A program made the position numbers and the translations under genes. From Candidatus Omnitrophota bacterium (lineage in GTDB: Bacteria; Omnitrophota; Gorgyraeia; JAFGHF01): a stretch of DNA of 64,000 nucleotides. Shown in pieces: positions 2,932-61,576 of the stretch. The first letter of the stretch is position 1. Each line of letters opens with the position of its first letter. The notes below the pieces were generated by a model. That model did not search any database, was not told the origin of the DNA, and worked only from the letters and a program-made list of their open reading frames with translations. Location: contig JBHPFV010000002.1 in assembly GCA_042571705.1 (NCBI GenBank), positions 46,822 to 110,821 of the forward strand, written 5' to 3'.

Positions 2932-3225
2932 CTCTTCTCTTCTTCTCTATCTATACAGGGCTCGGGGTCCTGTCTCGGGTGCGCTTTCGGTGCTCGTTCC
3001 CCTAAAGGGGTGGGCCTTGCCCTCCTTTAGACAAGGGCCCTAGATTACAGTCCCTGGCTGCCGAAGGCAGACAAGAAACTTATACTATCTGTGTTTTCTC
3101 TCACTGCGCGCCGAAAGCTAGCACCCTCGCCACCCCTCGCCAACATCGATGATTGCACATGCGAGCTGTTTTTGCATTTAAATGCTGGTGGGCGGCTAAG
3201 CGGCCATCAGCAATTTATTGGCAAT

Positions 3226-3410
3226 AGAGTTGTGAGCATTTACAGTGAGCAAATGGCGGAACTGACCGAGAACTCACCCAATTATATTCTTACGAGGGAA
3301 TTCCGCCAAATTTGCGAACTGCCTCTCCTTAAATTCACAGTTTAGCAGGCCACGAGCGAAGCGAGTGGTAAATGCCACAACTCGGCAAAAAATTGCAGGC
3401 CGCGAGACGC
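3226..3410. repeat. Copy 1 of a ~185-nt structured intergenic element with terminal inverted repeats (second copy at 52976-53160)
   Basis: A 47-nt block (3226-3272) and a 43-nt block (3281-3323) are identical to the 52976.. copy, with about 85-90% identity overall. Internal stem GCAAATGGCGGAA / TTCCGCCAAATTTGC encloses a variable loop. Second hairpin CGAGTGG-taaatg-CCACaaCTCG. Flanking inverted repeats cagcaatttattggc / gccaaaaaattgcag (read on + strand). Confidence 0.8.
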
Positions 3411-3480
3411 ACACCAGCATTCAACAAAGAACAAAAACACCGAGCAAAAGTCAGTCCGCGTGAGTCAGACCCTGAGTCAG

Positions 3481-5202
3481 TCATTTGTCTCGCTTTTGCT
3501 TGATTGCCCGGAGCAGTTTTTCCAAGGGCAGGGTGTTGATCAGGTCTTGCTTCTGCAGCCATCCCCGCCTGGCAACCGTAACCCCTAACGGCATAAATTG
3601 TAAATGCTCAAGGGTATGGGCGTCAGTGTTAATCGACATCCGCACCCCTAATTCCTGCGCCCGGCGACAGTTAACATCGATCAAATCCAATCGATCAGGA
3701 AAGGCGCTGATTTCCATAAACGTATTAGTCTCAGCGGCCTTTTTCAATACCGCTTCGATATCTAAAGCATAAGGCTCACGCTGAGCTAACAGCCTGCCCG
3801 ATGGATGGGCGATGATGCTGACATATTTATTTTCCATTGCCGAGATCATCCGCTGAGTCAGCTGTTGCCGGCTTTGCTTAAAACCAGTGTGGATAGCGGC
3901 GACGACGATATCCAGCTGCTTTAATACTCTATCCGGGTAGTCTAAGCTGCCGTCTGACTTGATATCCACCTCACTGCCGGATAAAATTCGAAAACCTTTT
4001 AATTTTTTATTTATTTTATGAATAAGTTCGCTCTGTTTCTTTAAACGATCAATACTTAAGCCATTGGCAATTTTTATTGATTGCGAGTGATCGCAAATTG
4101 CAATATACTGATAGCCCATGGCCGCCGCGGACCGAACCAGATCTTCAATCTTGACCGTGCCGTCACTCCAGCGAGAATGCAGATGTAAATCCCCCTTGAT
4201 TGATGAGAACTCGACTAGTTTGGGTAAGGCACTATTCTGTGCCGCCTCAATTTCACCCCTGTCTTCACGCAGCTCCGCGGGTATCGGGTCGAGTTTAAGC
4301 TGCCTGTATATTTCCTGTTCAGTCTTTCCGGCTAGCCATTTTTTATTTTTAAATACTCCATATTCATTAATCTTTAAGCCTTGCTTGATCGCTAACTGAC
4401 GCAGTTTGATATTGTGCTGTGTAGACCCGGTAAAATATAATAATGCCGCCCCAAAGCTTTTCGGCTCGACCACACGCAGATCGACCTGGATATCATTCTG
4501 GCTCAAAATGCTGGATTTTGTCGCGCCTTTTGCTAACACCCGTTTTACTTGTGGCAACTGGGTAAAAACATCCATAACTTTTTTTGGCCGCACAGATGTA
4601 ATCAGGATATCAATGTCTCTGACCGTTTCTTTCTTGCGCCTTAATGATCCGGCCGGCTCAATTTGCTTGATTTCCTTTAGTTTTGCTAAGGCGCCGGTAA
4701 ACTCATCCGCTATGGCCTTAGCCTGCGCCAAAGGCATTCTTTCTTTAGCTTTTTTAACTAAGGCGATCCCCCGGCGAATATTCTCTTCTGTTTTTTCTTT
4801 AAACCCGGGCAAATCCCTGATCTGATGCTTCGACACCGCTTGTTCTAAGTGTTTTAGACTTCTGACGTTTAATTTGTCATATAGGGTCTTGGCGGTCTTA
4901 GGTCCTACTCCGGGCACAGACATCAAAATAGTCAGCCCTTCCGGTATATTGTCGCAAAGCTCTTGATAAAATTTAAGCTTGCCGGTGTTGACAATCTCCT
5001 TTATTTTCTCGGCTAAGTCCTGACCGATTCCGGGGATTTGCTCCAGCGCCTCTTTGGCTGCTAAGTCTTCCACGGCTTGAGGCAGCGACTCAATATTTTG
5101 TGCAGCCTTCAGATAGGCCCGAATGCGAAACGGATTTTGATCCTGAATCTCTAAAATCTCAGCGATTTGACGAAAGATCTGGGCTACTTCCTTATTTTTC
5201 AT
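3481..5202 (-). CDS. polX: DNA polymerase X family protein with C-terminal PHP phosphoesterase domain
   Basis: Pol-beta-like N-terminus (HhH, GIGxxxA), 573 aa, C-terminal PHP histidine motifs (HxHS..., DAH). Matches the bacterial PolX architecture. Confidence 0.85.
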   Translation of the reverse strand: MKNKEVAQIFRQIAEILEIQDQNPFRIRAYLKAAQNIESLPQAVEDLAAKEALEQIPGIGQDLAEKIKEIVNTGKLKFYQELCDNIPEGLTILMSVPGVGPKTAKTLYDKLNVRSLKHLEQAVSKHQIRDLPGFKEKTEENIRRGIALVKKAKERMPLAQAKAIADEFTGALAKLKEIKQIEPAGSLRRKKETVRDIDILITSVRPKKVMDVFTQLPQVKRVLAKGATKSSILSQNDIQVDLRVVEPKSFGAALLYFTGSTQHNIKLRQLAIKQGLKINEYGVFKNKKWLAGKTEQEIYRQLKLDPIPAELREDRGEIEAAQNSALPKLVEFSSIKGDLHLHSRWSDGTVKIEDLVRSAAAMGYQYIAICDHSQSIKIANGLSIDRLKKQSELIHKINKKLKGFRILSGSEVDIKSDGSLDYPDRVLKQLDIVVAAIHTGFKQSRQQLTQRMISAMENKYVSIIAHPSGRLLAQREPYALDIEAVLKKAAETNTFMEISAFPDRLDLIDVNCRRAQELGVRMSINTDAHTLEHLQFMPLGVTVARRGWLQKQDLINTLPLEKLLRAIKQKRDK

Positions 5203-12965: not shown

Positions 12966-13861
12966 AGCTCCTGCTTCTTTTGCGCAATCAATACTCTATA
13001 TTTTTGATTGTAGTCCTGCGTTATTGAAGAAAACATCAGCCCGGGGTGTTTTGTTAAAATCTCAATGATCGGCTGTTTTTGCTCTTCGCCAATCTCACAA
13101 ACCAAAACACCTTGGGTCTGTAAATACTCAGAAGCCTGGGCTATAATCATCCGGTAATAGTCCAGCCCGTCTGGACCGCCGTCAATAGCCAGCTTAGGCT
13201 CATAATTTAATTCGCGAGGCAGCTGCGAAATCTGCGCTGTTTTGATATAAGGCGGGTTGCTGACGATTAAAGAGAACTGCCGATCTTTCTTAAAGGCATT
13301 GAATAAGTAGCTTTTAACTAAAGAAATGTTGACCCGGTTTAAAAGGGCGTTCTCCTGGCTCAATTTTAAAGCAGAATCAGATATATCGCAAGCAAAAATT
13401 TTGGCATTACTCAAATACTTCGCGCAACTTATGGCAATATTCCCACTGCCACAACCTAGGTCTAGGATTTTCGGGGCTAGACCTGTGTCTAGGATTTTCG
13501 GGGCTAGACCTGTGTCTAGGATTTTACTAAAACTATCTTTCAGCCGAAGCACAGTTTCTACCAAAACTTCAGTTTCCGGCCGGGGAATAAACACGCCCGG
13601 TCTGACCTTAAATGGCAGCCCCATGAATTCTGTAGTTCCCAGTAGATATTGTAATGGCAAACCATCCGCCCGCTCAGACAATAGCCCCCAAAAACGCCTT
13701 AGTTTTGGGGCGTAAACCTGAACATTATCAAGATAGAGCTCAATCCGGGCGCAACCCAGCACATGCGCAAGAAAGAGTTCGCTTTCTCCTTGAGCATTGG
13801 CAATGCCGCTTTGCGACAAGAAATTATATCCTGCTTTAAGCAATCCTAAGCGGTTATTCAT
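12953..13861 (-). CDS. prmC: Release factor glutamine N5-methyltransferase PrmC (HemK)
   Basis: SAM motif [14 protein letters not shown] and NPPY catalytic motif (IVSNPPYI). Contains an in-frame duplicated nonapeptide ILDTGLAPK x2. Confidence 0.85.
13461..13514. repeat. Perfect 27-nt x2 tandem direct repeat inside prmC (a partial third unit follows)
   Basis: tctaggattttcggggctagacctgtg is repeated exactly twice, then tctaggatttt. Each unit contains the short inverted repeat ggtctag/ctagacc. It encodes [18 protein letters not shown] immediately before the SAM motif. Confidence 0.85.
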
Positions 13862-49102: not shown

Positions 49103-50079
49103 ACCAACTCGGCAATCTGCACCGCATTCAGCGCCGCGCCCTTGCGTAAATTATCGGCCACTATCCATAACCAAAAACCATTTTTTACAAATGGATCTTT
49201 TCTGATCCGGCCGACAAACACATCATCGGTTCCGGCAGCATCAATCGGCAGCGGATAGGCGCCGCTTTCAGGCTGATCAATGACCTTAATCCCTGAACTC
49301 TTGCCTAAGAGCTGTTTAATTCTTTTTACGGTAATATTACGCTTGGTCTCAAGATAGACCGCCTCACTATGTCCGATGGCCACAGGCACCCGGACACAAG
49401 TAGCGCTGATTCTGATGTTTTTATCATGCATAATCTTGTGGGTTTCATCGACCATCTTCCATTCTTCCGAAGTATAGTCGCATTTGCCAAAACCACCGAT
49501 ATGCGGAATTACATTTCTTGATATTTGTGAACTAAAGGCCGGCTCTATTACTTGTTCGGCCCTGGTTTCGCTCTCCAGTTGTCTTAAGCCCCCACGCCCA
49601 GCTCCGGAAACAGCCTGATAACTGCAGGCAATCGCCCTTTTTAAACCTGCGGCCTGATAGATCGGCCAAAGGGCAACCACAAACTGAATAGTGGAACAAT
49701 TTGGGTTAGCAATCAATCCGCGATGTTTTTTAACATCTTCGGGGTTGACCTCAGGAACCACCAAAGGTACGCCTTTCTTTAAGCGAAAATCGGCGCCGTT
49801 ATCAATCACTACGGCCCCGCTTTTGATCGCATCCGGGGAATAGGTTACGGCCGCCCCTTTTTCTCCTTCTGTCCCCGCAAATAACGCAATATCTATACCC
49901 TCAAAGGCATCGGCCGAAATTTTCTGGACATTATACTTTTGATCATCAAAGACCACTTCGCGATTACTCCGCGCAAACACACGCAGTTCATTGATCGGAA
50001 ACTTTCGCTGACGCAAAACGCGCAACATTTCCTCACCGACCGCCCCGACACCAACTACCGCTACATTATATTTCCTCAT
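49084..50079 (-). CDS. asd: Aspartate-semialdehyde dehydrogenase
   Basis: VAVVGVGAVG Rossmann motif and active-site Cys (NPNCSTIQ). The ATG overlaps the leuB stop (ATGA). Confidence 0.9.
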   Translation of the reverse strand: MRKYNVAVVGVGAVGEEMLRVLRQRKFPINELRVFARSNREVVFDDQKYNVQKISADAFEGIDIALFAGTEGEKGAAVTYSPDAIKSGAVVIDNGADFRLKKGVPLVVPEVNPEDVKKHRGLIANPNCSTIQFVVALWPIYQAAGLKRAIACSYQAVSGAGRGGLRQLESETRAEQVIEPAFSSQISRNVIPHIGGFGKCDYTSEEWKMVDETHKIMHDKNIRISATCVRVPVAIGHSEAVYLETKRNITVKRIKQLLGKSSGIKVIDQPESGAYPLPIDAAGTDDVFVGRIRKDPFVKNGFWLWIVADNLRKGAALNAVQIAELVCATLK

Positions 50080-51161
50080 TCTTTTCCTTTTCGCTTTAAG
50101 AGGTTTTGGCACACTAAATCTCCGACTTCGGAAGTGGAATATCCCATCTTGCCGGCAGAGAGGCTCTGTAATTTATTTCCGGTAACATACATTACCGCAT
50201 TTTCGACCATTTGCCCGGCTTCCTTTTCACCCAACTGCCTGAGCATCATCTCCAAGGCGCAAATTGAGGCCAGCGGATTAATGACATTTTTTCCAGTATA
50301 TTTAGGCGCTGAGCCGCCAATCGGCTCAAACATCGAGACGCCCCCGGGGTTAATGTTACCTCCGGCAGCGATACCCATGCCGCCCTGAATCATCGCGCCC
50401 AAATCAGTAATAATATCACCAAACATATTGTCGGTCACAATTACATCAAACCACTCGGGATTTTTAATCATCCACATGCAAGTGGCATCCACATGCGCAT
50501 AATCGGTTTGGATATCCGGATAGTCTTTGGCCACTTGATTAAACAAGCGCTCCCAAAGGCCCCAGGCATAAGTCAAGACATTAGTCTTGCCGCAAAGAGT
50601 AAGCTTCTTTCTTTTATTGCGCTGGCGGGTAAACTCAAAGGCAAACCGTAGGCAGCGCTCAATCCCTAAGCGGGTATTGCGTGAGACTTGAACCGCCACT
50701 TCATCATCGGCCCCTTGATTAATAAATTCTCCCTCACCCACATAGAGACCCTCGTTATTCTCCCGGACCACCACAAAATCAATATCCTCAGGCAACTTGT
50801 CCTTTAAAGGCGTCCAAACTCCGGGGTAGAGTTTGACCGGACGTAAATTAATGTACTGATTCAGGCCAAATCTAATCTTTAGCAGTAACCCTTGCTCTAA
50901 AATCCCCGGTTTGACCCGCGGGTCGCCGACCGCGCCAAGAAAGATGGCATCAAATTGCTTAAGACCCTCAAGTTGGGCGTCGGTTAGCACTTCTTTAGTT
51001 TTCAGATAGCGTTCGGCACCGTAGTCAAATTCCTGGGCCTGGTATTTAAAGCCGCAGATTTTACTCACTGCCTCTAAGACCTTTAAGCCTTCGCGGACTA
51101 CCTCTGAACCAGTACCGTCTCCGGCGATTACGGCTATTTTATATTTTTCTTTCTTATCCAC
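50076..51161 (-). CDS. leuB: 3-isopropylmalate dehydrogenase
   Basis: [14 protein letters not shown]-terminus. IMDH/IDH signature NMFGDIITD. Confidence 0.9.
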
Positions 51162-51625
51162 TGCATCAATCCTCCTGCTCTAATCAACTCCTGCATAAAC
51201 TTAGGAAATTTTTGGGCGTAATAGACCTTGGCTTGCGCCAGATCGGAAATTTCACCTTTATCTAAATCTATTTCCAGCAAGCTATTATTTTTAATCTGTT
51301 GAGCCTGCTGACAGTCCAAAATCGGCAGGCCGATATTGATCGCGTTGCGATAAAAAATCCGGGCAAAACTCACGGCCACTACACAAGAAAAACCGGCGGC
51401 CTTAATCGAAACCGGCGCATGTTCCCGAGACGAACCACAGCCAAAGTTCTCACCGGCTACCATCAGATCGCCCTTTTTCACGGCCTTAGCCAACCCCGGC
51501 TGAATGCCTTCCATACAATGCCGGCCTAATTCCTTGGGATCGCTAATGTTTAAGAACCTGGCCGGAATAATCTCATCCGTATTAACATCATTACCGAACT
51601 TATGTACTCGACCTTTTAACTTCAT
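51134..51625 (-). CDS. leuD: 3-isopropylmalate dehydratase small subunit
   Basis: [13 protein letters not shown] ... [14 protein letters not shown]. Confidence 0.9.
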
Positions 51626-51631
51626 TAGGGT

Positions 51632-51670
51632 ACACTTCTCCGATTGATTTTAGGACACTTCTCCGATTGA
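51632..51670. promoter_or_regulatory. Two copies of a 16-nt direct repeat (acacttctccgattga), 23 nt apart, immediately upstream of the leuD start
   Basis: Exact 16/16 identity. On the gene strand each copy contains GGAGAAG (SD-like). It lies at the boundary between leuD and the low-GC insert. Confidence 0.4.
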
Positions 51671-51690
51671 GTTAAGAACCGGTCTTAGTT

Positions 51691-52119
51691 TTATGTGACA
51701 CGGTGGTTTGAGTTGCTGGATGTTTTTAATTTCTTAATGAGATTTATATAAATCGTCTTCAAATAATAGACGCCTACCAGAAAAGCTCCAACAAATAGCA
51801 AAGATTGAAATGAATTCAATCCTCTTGCATATGTATATTTAATCCAACCTCTATGTGCTTGTGCATGTGCCTCGAATAACGATTTAGCTACTTTTGATTC
51901 TCGCTCCGTCTTTGGGAAGAACTCACTGTGCATAGAAGTAAATTGCTCAGTAAAAGAATCATGGATATCTTTTACTTTTATGGCGGTCAAAAATATTGAT
52001 GTTATAGCTCCTATGATTAAAAGCATACCAATCCATAAGACAATCTTATCGCTTTTCTTGATTTCAGAATTTAGGATACGTTTTTCGATTTTGGTCAATT
52101 CCATATTCTTTGCTCTCAT
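51691..52119 (-). CDS. Small membrane protein (2 predicted TM helices), unknown family, within the low-GC insert
   Basis: Hydrophobic segments IVLWIGMLLIIGAITSIFLTAI and LLFVGAFLVGVYYL. AT-rich, Lys/Asn-rich codon usage unlike the neighbouring genes. Confidence 0.5.
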   Translation of the reverse strand: MRAKNMELTKIEKRILNSEIKKSDKIVLWIGMLLIIGAITSIFLTAIKVKDIHDSFTEQFTSMHSEFFPKTERESKVAKSLFEAHAQAHRGWIKYTYARGLNSFQSLLFVGAFLVGVYYLKTIYINLIKKLKTSSNSNHRVT

Positions 52120-52257
52120 ACCTTATTATTACATCCTACGTCGAAATCAGCAGCCTCACCCGTGGTTAACGCGTTGTAAGGGTCCGCTGGATTGATTTGT
52201 TAGACAAATATTTTAATACCATATTCTTTTAATATCCTCATTATAATTTGAAATATC

Positions 52258-52866
52258 TTACGGAAGCAATGAGGAAACATTTGCATCTTGATTAAGAATT
52301 GATGAATAACGTATGCAGAGTTTATCTAATCCTTCAACGGCTCGATGGATTTCATGCCATTTTATTTTTTTCTTCCCTTTTAATTTTCTTTGACTATGAG
52401 CAAAAATGGTATCAACCGTAGTGCCAATGCGTTTAGTATTTTTTTCAAACTTATTCAAGTCTGCAATGACATTTTTTTTAGGTAAGGCGTCGTTGCCGGC
52501 GCCAACGAGTGAATTAAAATCTTCCTGACCAAATCTTTTTATATGTTTAGGATACCGCCTGACATAGCTTCTTCTTGTAATAATTTGCGGGTTTTTGGCA
52601 ATAGATTGCATAAGGTGAAATAATGAGTAAGTCCTATTATCTTTATCAATAAGTCGGCGAATTCCCATTGCAACATGAGTTGCATAGTTCCTTTTTACCC
52701 AGTTAATAACAAGAGTGTTGTTTATGTATTTCTGGGAAGTATTTATGATTTCCATTGATTGACGAAAAATATAATTATCAATGAGGACACCGGTAACCAT
52801 TTTATTTATTTTTTTCATCCGGTATCGCCATTTAGCTCTGGTTTTGGAATAGTCTTTTTTATGCAT
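52258..52866 (-). CDS. Hypothetical 202-aa basic protein with a HEPN-like R-N-x3-H motif (candidate Abi/toxin-type RNase), within the low-GC insert
   Basis: ..WVKRNYATHVAMGIRRL.. matches the R[NHD]x3-5H HEPN signature. About 35% GC versus about 48% in the flanking genes. No other recognisable domain. Confidence 0.4.
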   Translation of the reverse strand: MHKKDYSKTRAKWRYRMKKINKMVTGVLIDNYIFRQSMEIINTSQKYINNTLVINWVKRNYATHVAMGIRRLIDKDNRTYSLFHLMQSIAKNPQIITRRSYVRRYPKHIKRFGQEDFNSLVGAGNDALPKKNVIADLNKFEKNTKRIGTTVDTIFAHSQRKLKGKKKIKWHEIHRAVEGLDKLCIRYSSILNQDANVSSLLP

Positions 52867-52975
52867 TTATATTTTGTCTAACAATTAATATAGGAAATTC
52901 GTATTTTGTGGTATTACTCTCGTTTGACCTTGCGAGGTGTCTTTGCAGAGCGAGCATTAGAATTTTTTCGGCAAA

Positions 52976-53160
52976 AGAGTTGTGAGCATTTACAGTGAGC
53001 AAATGGCGGAACTGACCGAGAAACACCAGATTATATTCTTACGAGGGAATTCCGCCAAATTTGCGAACTGCCCCTCCTTAAAGTAACCTTTAGCCGGCCA
53101 CGAGCGCAGCGAGTGGTAAATGCCACAACTCGGCGAAAAAATTCAGCGAGCGAGCAAAGA
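52976..53160. repeat. Copy 2 of the ~185-nt structured element (see 3226-3410)
   Basis: Same conserved blocks and hairpins as copy 1. Bounded by the inverted repeats gaattttttcg (52960-52970) and cgaaaaaattc (53135-53145). It lies 24 nt after the leuC stop and about 110 nt before the HEPN-like ORF. Confidence 0.8.
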
Positions 53161-53183
53161 TACCGAAGCAAGGTCAAAGAACC

Positions 53184-54467
53184 TTAAATTTCCTCAGGAT
53201 GGGCGATTCGTCCTTTGATCGCGCTGGCCGCGGCCACCGCCGGATTCGACAAATAGACCTTGCTGCTTAAGGCCCCCATCCGGCCCCGGAAATTACGATT
53301 AGTAGTGGCAATGGCCACCTCGCCTTCGCCCAGGATACCCATATGTCCACCCAGGCAAGGCCCGCAAGTCGGCGGGCACACTGTTGCCCCAGCCTTAACA
53401 AAAATGTCGATCAAGCGTAGCTTTAAGGCCAGGCGAAAGATTTGTTGCGTACCCGGAAAAACAATTAATCTGACCCGGGAATTAGCTTTACGCTTCCTCA
53501 AAATACTTGCCGCCGACATCAAGTCGGAGATCCGCCCATTAGTGCAAGAACCAATCACCGCTTGGTCAATGTTTATCTTCTTTAACCTGCCTACCGGCTG
53601 GACATTACTTGGTAAATGCGGGCAAGCCACCTGAGGCTCTAATTTGCTCACATCATATTCCCAAATTGCCGAGTATCTAGCCCCGGGGTCACTGCTTAGG
53701 CCTCTAAACTTCCTCATGTTTGCTTTGGTCAAGCTGGCCCCGGCCACCTGCCTAAGATAGGCGTGCGTTTTTTGATCGGGGGACACGATCCCTGATTTTG
53801 CGCCGGCTTCAATAGCCATATTACACATCGTAAATCTGCCATCCATAGATAAGCGCGTTATCGCCGGACCGGTAAATTCCATTGCTTTGTATAGCGCGCC
53901 GGATACGCCAATATCCGCTATAGTCCGCAGAATTAAATCCTTACCTCCAACCCAGTTACCGGCTGTTCCATGATAAACAAACTTTATTGATTCCGGCACA
54001 CGCAACCAAACCTCTCCAGTAATCCAGGCCGCGGCTAAATCAGTTGAGCCTATCCCGCTGGCAAATGCCCCCAGGGCCCCATAAGTACAGGTATGCGAAT
54101 CAGCCCCGATCACCAACTGGCCGGGTAAAATCAAACCTTTCTCCGGAAGTAAGACGTGCTCAATACCGCCAAGACCTAGCCGGTAAAAATGCTTAATCTT
54201 GTAATCACGCGCAAAATCCTCAACTAATTTATTTTGATTTGCGCTTTGGACATCCTTGCTAGGTACGAAGTGGTCACAGACTAAGGCCGCCTTAGCGCGG
54301 TTAAAAACCGCAGCGGCTCGGCTGGCCTTGAATTTGGCGATAGCCAACGGTGAAGTAATATCGTTGCCCAAGGCTAAATCGACCCGGGCATTAATAAACT
54401 CACCCGGGGCAATGTCCTTCTTATTTGTGTGCGCCAATAAGATTTTTTCGGTTATTGTTGAGCTCAT
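53184..54467 (-). CDS. leuC: 3-isopropylmalate dehydratase large subunit
   Basis: Aconitase-family Cys ligands (..GSCTNGR.., CGPCLG). 427 aa, archaeal/short type. Confidence 0.9.
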   Translation of the reverse strand: MSSTITEKILLAHTNKKDIAPGEFINARVDLALGNDITSPLAIAKFKASRAAAVFNRAKAALVCDHFVPSKDVQSANQNKLVEDFARDYKIKHFYRLGLGGIEHVLLPEKGLILPGQLVIGADSHTCTYGALGAFASGIGSTDLAAAWITGEVWLRVPESIKFVYHGTAGNWVGGKDLILRTIADIGVSGALYKAMEFTGPAITRLSMDGRFTMCNMAIEAGAKSGIVSPDQKTHAYLRQVAGASLTKANMRKFRGLSSDPGARYSAIWEYDVSKLEPQVACPHLPSNVQPVGRLKKINIDQAVIGSCTNGRISDLMSAASILRKRKANSRVRLIVFPGTQQIFRLALKLRLIDIFVKAGATVCPPTCGPCLGGHMGILGEGEVAIATTNRNFRGRMGALSSKVYLSNPAVAAASAIKGRIAHPEEI

Positions 54468-55687: not shown

Positions 55688-56544
55688 TATTTTACAATCC
55701 TGTAAGTTGGATAAGCAAACTGAACATCTCTTTGTTGGGAAAATTCCTCTAGAATGCTTTGGGAAATTCGATCTTGGGTGCTGCGCCTTTCCCTGACTCC
55801 GGTCAGGTAACGCAAGATCAACTCAATGCCATATTCAGCGATATTTACATAAACGATCGGGGTCAGTTTGTCATAATAAATCATGTATTCGTGGGCCATC
55901 CTGTTAATCGAAGCGGCTACCTGGGGCTGCAATTTGTCGATTTCCGGATTGGCATGCTTCACTAGGATCTCCTTTGCCTTCTGCCAGTTACTTTCGAAGC
56001 TGACCGTAATCTTAACTTCGTTCCAGACAAAATTAAACCCTTTGGTGTAGTTGAATACTTTTTCTTTATACACGGCGCTATTTGGCACATGGACCACCCG
56101 GCCTGTGCTCTGCTCGGCCTCAACCCAATTCCCTACTTCCAAAAGAGCGGTCTGGAACATCCGCACATCAATCACATCGCCCTTGACCGCACCGAGTTCT
56201 ACCCGGTCCCCGACCGTAAACGGACGTTTAAAAATTATCAACAGCCAGCCGGCAAAGCAAAGGATTACCTCTTGCAGGGCCACCACCAGTCCGGCGCCAA
56301 CAATACTGATCACCACAGTTACCGACTTTACTCCTTCCAGCCAAAATACCAAACCAAAGATTAGAATAACCAATACCGTAGAGTAAAGAGTGGTTTTGCG
56401 TGCCGTATGTCTTTTGCGCAAGTCTTTAATCTGGCGGTTGATAAACTGGATAATTAACAGCCCTAAAAGGTAAATGCTCGCCGCAAAAAGAAAAAACTGA
56501 ACAATATTAGTACTCAATAAATCAGATATTTTATAAATCATCAC
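55687..56544 (-). CDS. Small-conductance mechanosensitive channel (MscS family)
   Basis: Three TM helices followed by a conserved beta-domain (..FTVGDRVELG...G.V.DV....T.L). Confidence 0.8.
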   Translation of the reverse strand: MMIYKISDLLSTNIVQFFLFAASIYLLGLLIIQFINRQIKDLRKRHTARKTTLYSTVLVILIFGLVFWLEGVKSVTVVISIVGAGLVVALQEVILCFAGWLLIIFKRPFTVGDRVELGAVKGDVIDVRMFQTALLEVGNWVEAEQSTGRVVHVPNSAVYKEKVFNYTKGFNFVWNEVKITVSFESNWQKAKEILVKHANPEIDKLQPQVAASINRMAHEYMIYYDKLTPIVYVNIAEYGIELILRYLTGVRERRSTQDRISQSILEEFSQQRDVQFAYPTYRIVK

Positions 56545-56564
56545 AAACCTCCTTTAGGTAAATA

Positions 56565-58541
56565 CTATAACCGAAGAATGTTCAAATTGCAACTAAAATG
56601 GAATGTTTTTTTAAGGCTGATCGGCCAATGCGCCAGGATCGCGGTTTGTTGATAGTTACGCTCAAAACCAGATTCTGAGCAAGATATAGTCTCAATCGGA
56701 AAGGCCCAAATATTAGTCTGGCGATCAAAAATCAGGCTGACCCTTAGCTTATTGACCGGGTCGGCAAAGCTAAGCTTTTGGCTGGCGGCGCGGTCTATTT
56801 CTTCTTTGTTCGGGGTCCCCAGGGCAAGATTAAATTCCACCCCAAAGATCATCTCCAAAGGTATTTCAGTAAGGTTTTCCAATTTGTAGCGAATGGCAAC
56901 ATCTGCGCTCTCCTGCGCCAGCGCTAATTCTTTGGTGATCTTGACCGCCAGGTCCTGGCCGCGGTAATTCACCTGGCCGGTCCTCTGTAAAAATAGCTTT
57001 AACTGATCGGTGCTTGTCTTTTGCGTTAAGGCATACTTACCATTGATAAAATCGCCCAACTCTGGGTAGTCTAGATTTTTGAAGTTTGAGCAACCCAGCT
57101 GACTGGGCAGAAAGTGATCTAAAAGTGATGTCCGCAGATATCTATCATAGCTTAAGAATTTATCCAATCCCTGCTCTTTGCTACGGAATAAATCGCGGAT
57201 GTTCATAGCCTGGCTAAACTTGCGCTTTAATCTTAACTTATTGCTGGAGCCCACTCTTTGATGGTACGCCTCCGGTCTCCTGGAGAATCCGTCGCAGAGA
57301 TTGACCGCTTGCGGCCGATAATCCAGCTCGGTAATCGCGCCACCCCGTTCAGCAGAAATAAATAAATTCAAAATACCATTTTTAATCATTAATTCCGGCT
57401 GAGTGCCCTGATCTAAATCTATAATCTCAGAACTGAGCTGAACTGCTTGCCGATCCTCTAGAGCCGCTTCAGCCCGGATCAAATTCGCGTAAACCGCGTG
57501 CCTTAAATGGGCCAGGTAAATCCCGCCAAATACCCCGTGCCAATAAGGGCAATTGCATTGCGCCATATACAGGTATCTTCTGGCGGTTAAGTCTTGATCG
57601 GCGCTCCTCGCTAGTCTGGCGCTGACATCAAGCATTCTTTTATGCAAGCGATTTGCTTCCGGATACTTGCTAAAGAAGTTCTCAAAGGCGCCGCCGGACC
57701 ATTGCATTATCTCCTGATAGCCGCCAGCCGGAACTTGGATCGACCCTTGGGGCTTTTCGCTGTGCAAATATTCGCTAATTGTCCGCGTGCTTAACCAACT
57801 CTGGTTATCAACCAAGAGTTGGAAAAACTGCTCCAGCCACTTTTTTCGATATACCCAGCGTTGAGTGCCCGGCCAAAGGCCAAATTTCTCACCGTCATCA
57901 ACAATAGTCAGGGCTGGGTTTTGGGTATTTTTAGCCCTGTCTTTTAAGTATTTAATTACCTGTTTCGGCCTGGAAAACGGGATTAAATAACGCAGCTCTT
58001 TGTTCACTGTAAAACATGATAGCGGGGGCGTGGAATTTTGAATAGTGTAATAACCGGAAAGATCTTTATGGCTCAATCCCGCTTTAAGCAAATGGAAATC
58101 ATCGAGTAAGATATATTTCAGGCCGACTTTAGTTAAACTGCTAATTAGCTCCGGGGCCCAGACTCTTTCCCCCAGCCAGAGACCTTGAGGTTCATATTCA
58201 AAATAGTCCCGAATAAAGTTATTCAGCATTTCAATTTGGCCGATTCTGTCTCTTTCGGGAATTACCGGAAGTACCGGCTCAAAATAACCTCCGCTTAATA
58301 TTTCTAAGCGTCCCTGTTTGACCATCTGCTTAACGATCTGCAATAACTCCGGATCATTTTTGAGTAACCAGTCAATCAAGGCGCCGCTAAAATGCAGCGT
58401 AGACTTAAGCTGAGGAAATTTATTGATCGTCTCAAGAAAGGGGCGGTAACAATCTTCGGTGGCTTTTCTAAAGACCGCGGGAAGATTTCCTACCGGCTGG
58501 TGATTGTGAACTCCGAATAGAAGGGTCAGTTTACCTGGCAT
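56565..58541 (-). CDS. Glycoside hydrolase family 57 alpha-glucan enzyme (4-alpha-glucanotransferase / branching-enzyme-like)
   Basis: GH57 N-terminal signature LLFGVHNHQPVGN. 658 aa, close to the size of characterised GH57 glucanotransferases and branching enzymes. Confidence 0.8.
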   Translation of the reverse strand: MPGKLTLLFGVHNHQPVGNLPAVFRKATEDCYRPFLETINKFPQLKSTLHFSGALIDWLLKNDPELLQIVKQMVKQGRLEILSGGYFEPVLPVIPERDRIGQIEMLNNFIRDYFEYEPQGLWLGERVWAPELISSLTKVGLKYILLDDFHLLKAGLSHKDLSGYYTIQNSTPPLSCFTVNKELRYLIPFSRPKQVIKYLKDRAKNTQNPALTIVDDGEKFGLWPGTQRWVYRKKWLEQFFQLLVDNQSWLSTRTISEYLHSEKPQGSIQVPAGGYQEIMQWSGGAFENFFSKYPEANRLHKRMLDVSARLARSADQDLTARRYLYMAQCNCPYWHGVFGGIYLAHLRHAVYANLIRAEAALEDRQAVQLSSEIIDLDQGTQPELMIKNGILNLFISAERGGAITELDYRPQAVNLCDGFSRRPEAYHQRVGSSNKLRLKRKFSQAMNIRDLFRSKEQGLDKFLSYDRYLRTSLLDHFLPSQLGCSNFKNLDYPELGDFINGKYALTQKTSTDQLKLFLQRTGQVNYRGQDLAVKITKELALAQESADVAIRYKLENLTEIPLEMIFGVEFNLALGTPNKEEIDRAASQKLSFADPVNKLRVSLIFDRQTNIWAFPIETISCSESGFERNYQQTAILAHWPISLKKTFHFSCNLNILRL

Positions 58542-59526: not shown

Positions 59527-60473
59527 CTAACCTGATGCCCCTGATCAAACGGTAAAAATGGCGGATATTCATCTTGACAGCGGGCAATCGCCCGGTCGCA
59601 GCGAGGATGAAAAGCGCATCCCGATGGTTTATCAGCCGGATCCGGCACAGTACCTCTGATCGCCGCCAGCCTTTTCCGGGCTTGACCCCGGCCGGGTCTA
59701 GAATCAAGAAGTTTCTGGGTGTAGGGGTGCTTAGGCTGCTCAAAAATTGTAAATACATCGGTAACTTCGACTACTTTTCCGGCATACATAATGCAGACTC
59801 TATCCGCCACCTCAGCTACAATTCCTAAATCATGCGTAATTAGTAGTACGGACATATTAAGCTTCTCTTTTAGATGAGCAAAAAGTTGTAAGATCTCGGC
59901 CTGGATGGTTACATCCAAAGCCGTGGTCGGTTCATCAGCAATCAAAATCTTAGGATTTCCGGCTAGACCTTGGGCAATCATCGCCCGTTGTCTTAAACCG
60001 CCGCTTAAATTATGCGGATAATCGCTATATCTTTGTTCAGCCTGCGGCATCTCCACCTGCCTCAAAAGCTGAACTACTCTTTGCTGGGCCTCTTGCCGGC
60101 TTAAGTTTTGGTGGGCCAAAAGCGCCTCTTGGATCTGATAACCAATCGTATAGAGCGGATTCAAGGCGCTCATCGGCTCCTGAAAAATCATCCCGATTTC
60201 CTGACCTCTGATTGCGCGCATCTTTTGTCTTTTAAGCCTGGTCAAATCCTGGCCTTGAAAATTAACCTCACCCCCCATAATCTTGCCGGGAGGATTGGGC
60301 ACCAGGCCCATAATCGAAAGCGCGGTTACTGTCTTACCGCATCCGGATTCACCCACTAAGGCCAAGGTCTCCCCTTTCTGTAGCGTGAAAGAAACGCCTT
60401 CTACTGCCCGGGAGACTTTTTCTTCAAGATAAAAATAGGTATGTAGATTTTTGACTTCTAGTATATTATCCAT
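59508..60473 (-). CDS. Oligopeptide/dipeptide ABC transporter ATP-binding protein (OppD/DppD-like)
   Basis: Walker [10 protein letters not shown], signature [13 protein letters not shown]. Confidence 0.85.
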
Positions 60474-61576
60474 TAAAGCTTTCTGCCAACTTCCATTTGC
60501 GGATCCAGCGCATCACGTAAACCGTCACCTAAAAAGTTAAACGCCATCACCGTAATAAAAATAAACACGCCCGGAATTAAAATCCAGGGATGGAACTTAA
60601 TTTGGGCCACGGCCATGGCCTCAGTTAATAAGTTGCCCCAGCTGGCGTGCGGGTCTTGAATCCCCAGGCCTAAAAGGCTTAAGGCCGACTCACCTAAAAT
60701 ATACCCGGGAATGGAAAGGCTCAAAGCCACGATAATATAGGAAAGCGTATTCGGCAGCACGTGCCTGGCGATTATTGTCAGCGGGCTGGCCCCCAAAGCT
60801 CGGGCGGCCAGCACGTATTCTTTCTCCCGAATAGAAAGGGCCATGCCTCTGACTACCCGGGCCAGGCTGGCCCAACCGATAAAGCTCATAATCACCACGA
60901 TCAAAAAATATACCTGCAACGAGGAAAGCTGCGGCGGAAAGGCCGCCCTTAAGGCCAGCATCAGATAAAAGCCGGGGATCATCATAATCATCTCGCAGGC
61001 GCGCATGATCAGGTTATCGATCTTGCCGCCAAAGTAACCGGAGATGCCGCCGATTATCGAACCAATCACGAAGGTAATCGCTACTCCTGCCAGTCCGATA
61101 GAAAGCGAGACCCGCGCGCCAAAAAGGATGCGCGAAAAAAGGTCGCGGCCGCGGGAATCAGCGCCCAACAAATAGATCCGCCCGGGGGCATCTACGCCAA
61201 AAAGATGTAGACGGCTCGGGAACAATCCTAAGAATTTATACTCATCGCCACGGACAAAGAATTTAAGCGGATAAACCTTGTTTCGATCAACTGTATAAAC
61301 ACGGCGATAGAATTTATCGAACTGGGCCGCACAAATATAAACAAACGGACGCAGATGGATCTTGCCTGCGGCGTCAATGAAACGCAGCCTGGTCGGGGGA
61401 TTATAGGAATTGGCTCTTTGCTCGTTATCATAGTGGTAGGGAGCGAGAAAATCAGCAAAAATTGCGGAGAAGTAAAGGCAGACTAATACGGAAAATCCAA
61501 TAATGGCCAATGGATTCTGCCTTAATTTCCTTAAAGCCAGTTGGAACGGATTGAGGTATGCGCGCTGCATTTTCAT
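60473..61576 (-). CDS. Peptide ABC transporter permease (OppC/DppC-like)
   Basis: N-terminal extension followed by a BPD_transp_1 core with the EAA-like loop (..ARALGAS...). Confidence 0.8.
   Translation of the reverse strand: MKMQRAYLNPFQLALRKLRQNPLAIIGFSVLVCLYFSAIFADFLAPYHYDNEQRANSYNPPTRLRFIDAAGKIHLRPFVYICAAQFDKFYRRVYTVDRNKVYPLKFFVRGDEYKFLGLFPSRLHLFGVDAPGRIYLLGADSRGRDLFSRILFGARVSLSIGLAGVAITFVIGSIIGGISGYFGGKIDNLIMRACEMIMMIPGFYLMLALRAAFPPQLSSLQVYFLIVVIMSFIGWASLARVVRGMALSIREKEYVLAARALGASPLTIIARHVLPNTLSYIIVALSLSIPGYILGESALSLLGLGIQDPHASWGNLLTEAMAVAQIKFHPWILIPGVFIFITVMAFNFLGDGLRDALDPQMEVGRKL

Follow-up and report, generated by a model that had tools for sequence, protein, structure and literature searches.

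We analysed a window of 64 kilobases (kb; 64,000 nucleotides (nt)) on contig JBHPFV010000002.1 of a Candidatus Omnitrophota bacterium, in which leuC and leuD, the genes for the two subunits of 3-isopropylmalate dehydratase, are separated by 1558 nt. Two open reading frames (ORFs), both on the operon strand, lie in the gap: a gene for a 202-amino-acid (aa) protein of the AbiU2 family of HEPN proteins, and an ORF for a 142-aa protein with two predicted transmembrane (TM) helices. The split had been described in an original prediction, the coordinates of which hold, and the identity of the leu genes is confirmed by Pfam and NCBIfam. leuC matches PF00330 (Aconitase) at 341 bits and NF001614 at 604 bits (cutoff of 385), leuD matches PF00694 at 75 bits and TIGR02087 at 201.5 bits (cutoff of 109), and leuB matches NF002898 at 515 bits (cutoff of 393). 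Both subunit genes are present with leuB alongside, which identifies the locus as a leuCD operon.

Read from leuC on the minus strand, the gap comprises a palindromic repeat, the HEPN gene, the two-TM ORF and a short duplication at the start of leuD. The repeat begins 6 nt past the leuC stop codon and is followed by around 55 nt of AT-rich DNA before the HEPN gene; a 138-nt untranslated spacer separates the HEPN gene from the two-TM ORF; and the final 65 nt before leuD include a 23-nt tandem duplication (TCGGAGAAGTGT... twice) that runs into the leuD ATG. leuD retains its GGAG ribosome-binding site, in duplicate, and neither the HEPN gene nor the two-TM ORF has a clear Shine–Dalgarno site when the sequence is read by eye. 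The gap is composite, consisting of a native palindromic repeat and approximately 1.25 kb of foreign low-GC DNA (~51690-52920). Three features of the locus were not remarked on in the original prediction: a premature stop codon in the HEPN gene, the 23-nt duplication at the start of leuD, and the native GC content of the repeat together with its separateness from the foreign segment (Table 1).

Table 1 Features of the leuC–leuD locus, in window coordinates
Feature	Position	Strand	Remark
leuC, 3-isopropylmalate dehydratase large subunit	53184-54467	-	upstream flank of the insert
Palindromic (long-hairpin) intergenic repeat	~52923-53178	.	non-coding, native-like GC
AbiU2-family HEPN gene, 202 aa, read to premature TAA	52258-52866	-	
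In-frame remnant of ancestral C-terminal tail (DISNYNEDIKRIWY + stop)	52213-52257	-	
12-nt perfect inverted repeat, TTGTTAGACAAA / TTTGTCTAACAA	arms 52197-52208, 52873-52884	.	brackets the ancestral HEPN ORF
ORFan gene, 142-aa protein, two predicted transmembrane helices	51691-52119	-	
23-nt tandem duplication, leuD ribosome-binding region	51621-51666	-	two copies, 78% identity
leuD, small subunit	51134-51625	-	downstream flank of the insert
leuB	50076-51161	-	after leuD

The two genes in the gap stand apart from the rest of the window in base composition. As a reference we used the 59 non-overlapping window ORFs of at least 100 aa, which average a GC content of 0.458 ± 0.033 and a GC content at third codon positions (GC3) of 0.494 ± 0.046. 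The HEPN gene and the two-TM ORF have GC contents of 0.340 and 0.342 and GC3 values of 0.34 and 0.31, respectively. They are the only ORFs in this set that are more than 2 standard deviations (s.d.) low in GC, and in both genes GC and GC3 fall 3.4–4.1 s.d. under those of the other window genes. The lowest-GC 1200-nt stretch of the entire window begins at 51701. The AT-rich shift on which the original prediction was partly built is thus borne out. Chance ORFs of these lengths are rare in such DNA: in 5000 shuffles of the low-GC stretch, ORFs of at least 142 codons arose in 11 (0.2%) and ORFs of at least 202 codons in none.

Comparison with other genomes points the same way. Scanning a genome collection with LeuC yielded 80 species-level loci, with leuD locatable in 59, and the gap between the two genes is 292 nt or less in 53 of these 59 loci. 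Fourteen of the loci are from other species labelled as Omnitrophota; their gaps range from -8 to 292 nt (173 nt in the closest, which has 73% LeuC identity), and a relative of either insert protein was found between leuC and leuD in none of the 14. The insert was therefore acquired. Its composition, its absence from relatives and the family membership of its HEPN gene show that the ~1.25-kb segment is of horizontal origin, as had been proposed. Other genes occur at this junction elsewhere. In another Omnitrophota metagenome-assembled genome (MAG; locus L010), the two genes are separated by an 85-aa GIY-YIG-like ORF (4450-4707), with a GC content of 0.32 versus 0.46 in its flanks, and unrelated genes occupy the junction in six non-Omnitrophota loci (L036, L051, L053, L061, L062 and L080); judged by sequence reading only, these are methyltransferase-, response-regulator receiver-, DsrE- plus PNPOx-, TenA- and BadF-type ATPase-like. 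The junction can therefore be broken.

The insert is also present in a second, near-identical MAG (GCA_042569555.1), with 99.8% identity over 11.1 kb and zero differences within the insert. Between the two genomes there are 25 single-nucleotide polymorphisms (SNPs) in these 11.1 kb, of which 24 fall in two short clusters (L007): 11 in the 3′ end of leuC (53211-53526), just upstream of the insert, and 13 at 60435-60518. These clusters resemble recombination patches or strain mixing. The contig of the second MAG (JBHPHE010000051.1; L006/L007) ends within the two-TM ORF, at window position 51714, which is ~50-90 nt from the 23-nt tandem duplication; this end could mean strain heterogeneity at the boundary of the insert or an assembly break at the duplication. 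An exact look-up with LeuD, for an empty-site allele or for the continuation of this contig, matched no record.

By profile comparison, the 202-aa protein belongs to the Pfam family HEPN_AbiU2, consistent with the putative HEPN identity given to it originally; RNase catalysis is putative. It matches PF18734 at 38.3 bits, above the gathering score of 26.8 (E = 1.3e-9), with residues 54-197 aligned to profile positions 42-178 of 193. An exhaustive HMMER search returned 883 cluster representatives at E ≤ 1e-3, mostly of 200-250 aa and aligned over nearly the full length of the query, and 59 of 62 aligned family members match PF18734 and nothing else. The protein is basic (net charge of +27) and predicted to be all-helical. 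Foldseek comparison with the PDB and BFVD gave no match at E ≤ 0.001, and a profile search of PDB sequences gave nothing relevant. No housekeeping family was matched in Pfam or NCBIfam, the latter returning only noise for both insert proteins; PHROGs gave nothing meaningful for either, and the HEPN protein has no match in plasmids (tblastn) or in a scan of viral contigs.

Conservation across the family locates the likely functional positions. H157 is invariant, R70 is present in 61 of 62 aligned members, and W13, Y61, R70, S81, L85, F117, G122, D136, A156 and Y187 are near-invariant. As W13 is among these, the start that gives 202 aa is the correct one, and the NCBI call of 186 aa begins too late. 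Columns 152-157 read [ND][KR]x[IVF]AH in the subfamily and DTIFAH in the window protein. R70, though conserved, lies in a different helix from His157. R59-x4-H64 (RNYATH), which resembled a HEPN motif, was rejected because conservation across the family does not extend to H64. The RNase sites of HEPN domains are dimeric and need no metal, and the domains serve as toxins both in abortive infection and in toxin–antitoxin systems; AbiU2 is listed among them as an abortive-infection (Abi) family found in restriction–modification (R-M) operons, and Rx4-6H is given as conserved in it (Anantharaman et al. 2013, PMC3710099).

The relatives of the HEPN protein lie in defence islands and on mobile elements. 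Its closest homolog (P0002; 76% aa and 82.7% nt identity) comes from Hainich groundwater metagenomes, and the gene for this homolog shares 4 nt with the end of a gene that matches the PADLOC Type II/IIG methyltransferase models; downstream are a PDC-S01 (AAA_14/DUF4143) ATPase and a DUF6364–PIN toxin–antitoxin pair. Other family members sit beside tyrosine integrases (recognised by sequence reading), within a nest of transposases, among HepT/MNT and BrnA toxin–antitoxin genes, and beside an IS200-type transposase. The gene for P0161 (L100, 1481-2441; L101) shares 8 nt with an overlapping gene for a 75-aa XRE-type helix-turn-helix (HTH) protein and adjoins a large serine recombinase. This layout is classically toxin–antitoxin-like and suggests a dedicated regulator or antitoxin for some family members. 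A locus search with a four-sequence alignment gave only 4 metagenome loci, and a third protein search, with the family profile, gave only 15 proteins.

In eight of eight loci, the GC content of the HEPN gene is below that of its flanks. At the nucleotide level, homology of the window to the P0002 locus is confined to the HEPN ORF, and the genes downstream of family members are mutually unrelated, encoding a DnaJ-domain protein, a secreted-type protein, small hypothetical proteins and an ATPase. Among defence islands and mobile elements, the HEPN family moves as a unit of one ORF. The original prediction had asked whether homologous gene pairs occur in defence islands elsewhere: the closest HEPN homolog does lie in one, whereas the pair recurs in none of the 10 other gene contexts of family members. 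In the window, no defence gene lies beside the HEPN copy, the neighbours of which are only the two-TM ORFan, leuC and leuD.

The window copy of the HEPN gene is shorter than its relatives at the C terminus. A premature TAA at 52258-52260 cuts off the last 14 residues; when reading is continued past it, the window encodes LLP-stop-DISNYNEDIKRIWY-stop where P0002 has LLPENVSDYDKDIRSIF..., and DNA homology to locus L001 extends past the stop codon, to window position 52231. Because the tail of the window copy matches P0002 beyond the TAA, we conclude that this codon is a nonsense change in a former ORF of 217 codons. The ratio of non-synonymous to synonymous substitution rates (dN/dS) between the window gene and P0002 is 0.24, and derived substitutions, polarised with two outgroups, number 14:14 on the window and P0002 lineages. 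Of the 23 most conserved core columns, the consensus is kept in 20, and the changes in the remaining 3 (V27, M86 and F140) are conservative. The simplest reading of these sequences is that a gene previously under purifying selection has recently been truncated at its end. The copy may be attenuated, or newly inactivated, given the loss of 14 residues and the Thr next to the invariant His.

The 142-aa protein has no such family. Its two hydrophobic segments (residues 24-42 and 107-125; Kyte–Doolittle) agree with the two-TM architecture first ascribed to it, and the charge of its 202-aa neighbour likewise agrees with the basic protein originally described. In an index of 5.8 billion proteins its only homolog is its own copy in the second MAG; it has no match in Pfam, NCBIfam, PADLOC or PHROGs, and none in phages or plasmids (tblastn) or in viral contigs. 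An AlphaFold2 model from the single sequence is a low-confidence helical hairpin (predicted local distance difference test score of 64.7). We judged the question of a partner on 10 other gene contexts of HEPN family members, a small sample, and found neither a homolog of the two-TM protein nor a recurring membrane partner in any of them. The hydrophobicity scan of the downstream neighbours in these contexts was partial: a 122-aa neighbour in L089 has one N-terminal segment, and those in L102 and L104 were unscanned. Most likely, the two-TM protein is cargo that came in with the HEPN gene, or a de novo ORF, rather than an obligate partner.

The repeat at the leuC-proximal end, where the original prediction had placed it, is an element of the host genome and is separate from the foreign low-GC segment. 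It spans ~256 nt, and a second copy (~3165-3430), ~90% identical over ~205 nt (3199-3406), lies between two unrelated co-directional genes. Its termini are 11-nt inverted arms (52923-52933 and 53168-53178). Both copies fold as a single long hairpin, with z scores of -6.7 and -8.3 for the two strands of this copy and -5.3 for the other. Within the repeat, a promoter-like TTGGCG-17-TATAAT (53058-53030) points toward the HEPN gene and is conserved in the second copy. The outer arms differ in sequence between the two copies, yet are self-complementary in each. The repeat resembles repetitive extragenic palindromes (REPs) and miniature inverted-repeat transposable elements (MITEs) in being non-coding and multi-copy, with 11-nt inverted termini and one long hairpin. 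It differs from them in having only two copies in the 64-kb window, no recognised target-site duplication and divergent outer arms, and it lies outside the foreign segment. No Rfam family matched anywhere in the window at the gathering threshold; an sRNA41 match in the gap, from a search at E ≤ 1, was dismissed as chance (27 bits versus 45). Long palindromic or hairpin sequences that are unrelated in sequence to the window repeat also occur in the leuC–leuD spacers of other Omnitrophota (L008, 7273-7445; L015, L016, L021 and L049), and this spacer may be a favoured home of palindromic elements or may hold a structured regulatory signal.

The boundaries of the insert offer few clues to its arrival. 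A 7-nt GGTTCTT at both ends was considered as a target-site duplication and rejected, because the left copy belongs to the palindromic repeat: the same GTTCTTTG is found in the other repeat copy. The 12-nt perfect inverted repeat around the ancestral HEPN ORF is probably a chance match, with at least one such perfect repeat in 26% of shuffles. The 23-nt duplication of the leuD Shine–Dalgarno region might be a scar of the insertion event. Elsewhere in the window, all 59 picked ORFs are on the minus strand, a striking gene-strand bias; a 27-nt unit is tandemly repeated twice, with 93% identity, at 13454-13507; and a second short low-GC patch (0.35-0.37) at 56300-56750 covers an intergenic region between MscS-like and GH57 genes, along with both gene ends.

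We consider it fairly probable that the gap combines a native repeat with an acquired, solo Abi-type HEPN gene of the AbiU2 family, accompanied by the two-TM ORF as cargo. A foreign, mobile, solo HEPN gene has been inserted in operon orientation between the repeat and leuD. On this account its product, by analogy with the family, would be a dimeric, metal-independent RNase-type abortive-infection toxin that is held inactive until phage infection and then halts translation. The gene would be transcribed either as part of the leu operon or from the repeat's promoter-like site. Because the insert is co-oriented and leuD keeps its GGAG site, read-through along with the leu genes would be probable, and leucine synthesis would be tolerated. 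The description of the operon as interrupted stands in part: leuC and leuD are separated in sequence, but the orientation of the insert and the retained ribosome-binding site of leuD speak against a functional break.

Several observations weigh against this account. The canonical Rx4-6H motif is absent, with no Arg 4–6 residues upstream of His157, and the window protein has Thr near His157 where 52 of 62 members have Lys or Arg. The lost tail bears a Trp that 54 of 60 family members share. Neither a mobility gene nor a clear target-site duplication was found that would explain how the insert arrived. PADLOC (PADLOC-DB v2, including lactococcal Abi systems) gave no match at E ≤ 1 for the two window proteins and three relatives, in keeping with the original prediction, which assigned the pair to no named defence system. 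Probable co-transcription with the leu genes is deduced solely from orientation, and we found no experiment on this AbiU2 subfamily in the sources consulted.

The comparison with AbiU2 itself is close in some respects and loose in others. The window protein scores above the gathering threshold of PF18734 and is standalone and predicted to be all-helical, and the gene for its closest homolog is coupled in translation to one for an R-M methyltransferase, matching the R-M operon context of the family. By contrast, the window copy lacks Rx4-6H (it has DTIFAH), is truncated at the C terminus and sits in a biosynthetic operon, where its neighbour is an ORFan membrane gene instead of R-M or Sel1 genes. 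A cassette of a Vibrio mimicus integron, HNPBCG_15845, with an AbiU2 HEPN domain has been linked to resistance to phages T4 and T7; it could not be cloned alone, and resistance was seen only for a combination of cassettes (bioRxiv 10.64898/2026.03.17.712381). This is the sole experimental link between AbiU2 and phage resistance that we found in the literature, and we take it as a hint. Likened by description alone, both are small, standalone AbiU2-type HEPN genes and mobile single-gene units; the Vibrio gene is in an integron, whereas the window gene has no attC site. HepT–MntA (HEPN/MNT) systems share with the insert a small HEPN toxin and a two-gene arrangement on mobile DNA, and HepT/MNT pairs share an island with one member of the window HEPN family. 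They differ in that the window has no nucleotidyltransferase partner, a different HEPN family and a membrane-protein neighbour downstream.

Cas13b-associated Csx28 is a HEPN-plus-membrane defence arrangement. A 'HEPN-TM' defence system encoded by phage-inducible chromosomal islands (PICIs) is also described (review, PMC12948488). Both resemble the insert in combining a HEPN domain with transmembrane helices, a likeness of general layout only, in a defence setting; in the window the two are separate genes 138 nt apart, and the membrane protein has no relatives.

Such arrangements bear on the alternative that the original prediction favoured, an abortive-infection or toxin–immunity module made up of the gene pair, which the lack of a homolog for the two-TM protein and the lack of recurrence in 10 contexts leave unsupported. 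In its general form, this alternative is that a HEPN toxin or sensor and a two-TM partner—an immunity protein, an antitoxin or a membrane-disrupting effector—were acquired and work together, and we regard it as unlikely. In its favour, the two genes lie side by side on one strand and share a foreign GC content; both show 100% identity to the second MAG, the flanks of which have SNPs; and the length of the two-TM ORF is beyond chance (0.2% of shuffles). The failure to clone the V. mimicus AbiU2 cassette alone hints at the need for a neutraliser, and HEPN–membrane combinations are known, including the PICI 'HEPN-TM' system (PMC12948488) and TM fusions of HEPN domains (listed in PMC3710099). However, besides its own copy the two-TM protein has no homolog, and the 10 other family contexts, in which the neighbours vary (methyltransferase, HTH, DnaJ-domain, secreted-type and other genes), contain none. 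The 138-nt spacer contrasts with the 4-8-nt overlaps of real partners in the family, homology with the closest relative ends at the ends of the HEPN ORF, and PADLOC has no match for either protein. Because the two-TM protein has no homolog in any resource searched, what argues for a two-gene module is adjacency alone.

Alternatively, the insert may now be inert, the remains of a mobile element or defence island in decay, with the HEPN gene a fresh pseudogene and the two-TM ORF non-functional; we hold this to be somewhat less likely still. The premature TAA, with a 14-codon tail still recognisable downstream, is compatible with decay, as are the Thr in place of the Lys or Arg of 52 of 62 members next to the putative catalytic His, the absence of a recombinase or transposase gene near the insert, the lack of a clear Shine–Dalgarno site in either gene, and the flat GC contents of the two-TM ORF at the three codon positions (0.35, 0.33 and 0.34) together with its lack of relatives. 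Against decay stand a dN/dS of 0.24 and branch lengths equal to those of the sister copy (14:14). The gene also keeps its conserved core residues, its single lesion is terminal, and two MAGs assembled independently have identical inserts.

More specific, and improbable in our judgement, is the proposal that the AbiU2 HEPN gene and the orphan two-TM gene form an undescribed two-gene Abi or toxin–immunity system of Omnitrophota that is wired into the leu operon. If so, its expression would follow the transcription of leucine biosynthesis, the membrane protein would be a neutraliser or effector, and the premature stop would be a tuning change, not an inactivation.

We attach very little probability to the idea that the HEPN gene is an integron-type gene cassette. 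It lies between core-like heptamers—GTTAGAC, which fits the R′ consensus GTTRRRY, 13 nt before its ATG, and GTCTAAC, which fits RYYYAAC, 8 nt after its ancestral stop—and AbiU2-type HEPN cassettes are known in Vibrio integrons. Yet the spacers have no attC-like structure and fold no better than shuffles (z = -0.45), the perfect 12-nt inverted repeat is at chance level, and no integrase is adjacent to the insert, although the whole window was not scanned for IntI. The inverted repeat is also not common to the locus of the closest homolog, where the HEPN gene overlaps the methyltransferase gene. A native origin of the two genes, as housekeeping or leucine-pathway accessory genes of the lineage that lie co-oriented within the leu operon, is effectively refuted already by their GC and GC3, their absence from the 14 other Omnitrophota, the mobile and defence contexts of the HEPN family, and the lack of any housekeeping match in Pfam and NCBIfam.

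We have demonstrated no new kind of system here. The HEPN protein joins a known, large and poorly studied family, and its location within leuCD and its ORFan neighbour are local curiosities; this well-documented instance of defence-gene hitch-hiking is an ordinary one and leaves current understanding unchanged. Experiments have hardly characterised the AbiU2 branch of HEPN proteins, and the locus supplies a natural allele pair for the function of the conserved tail, in the form of the truncated 202-aa protein and its inferable 217-aa ancestor, with P0002 for comparison. The leuC–leuD spacer repeatedly gathers selfish or foreign DNA, with a GIY-YIG gene in one Omnitrophota genome and palindromic repeats in several. 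The transfer unit of the HEPN family is essentially a bare ORF, and, as this uncultured Omnitrophota bacterium shows, a biosynthetic operon that is essential can receive and keep a solo defence or toxin gene.

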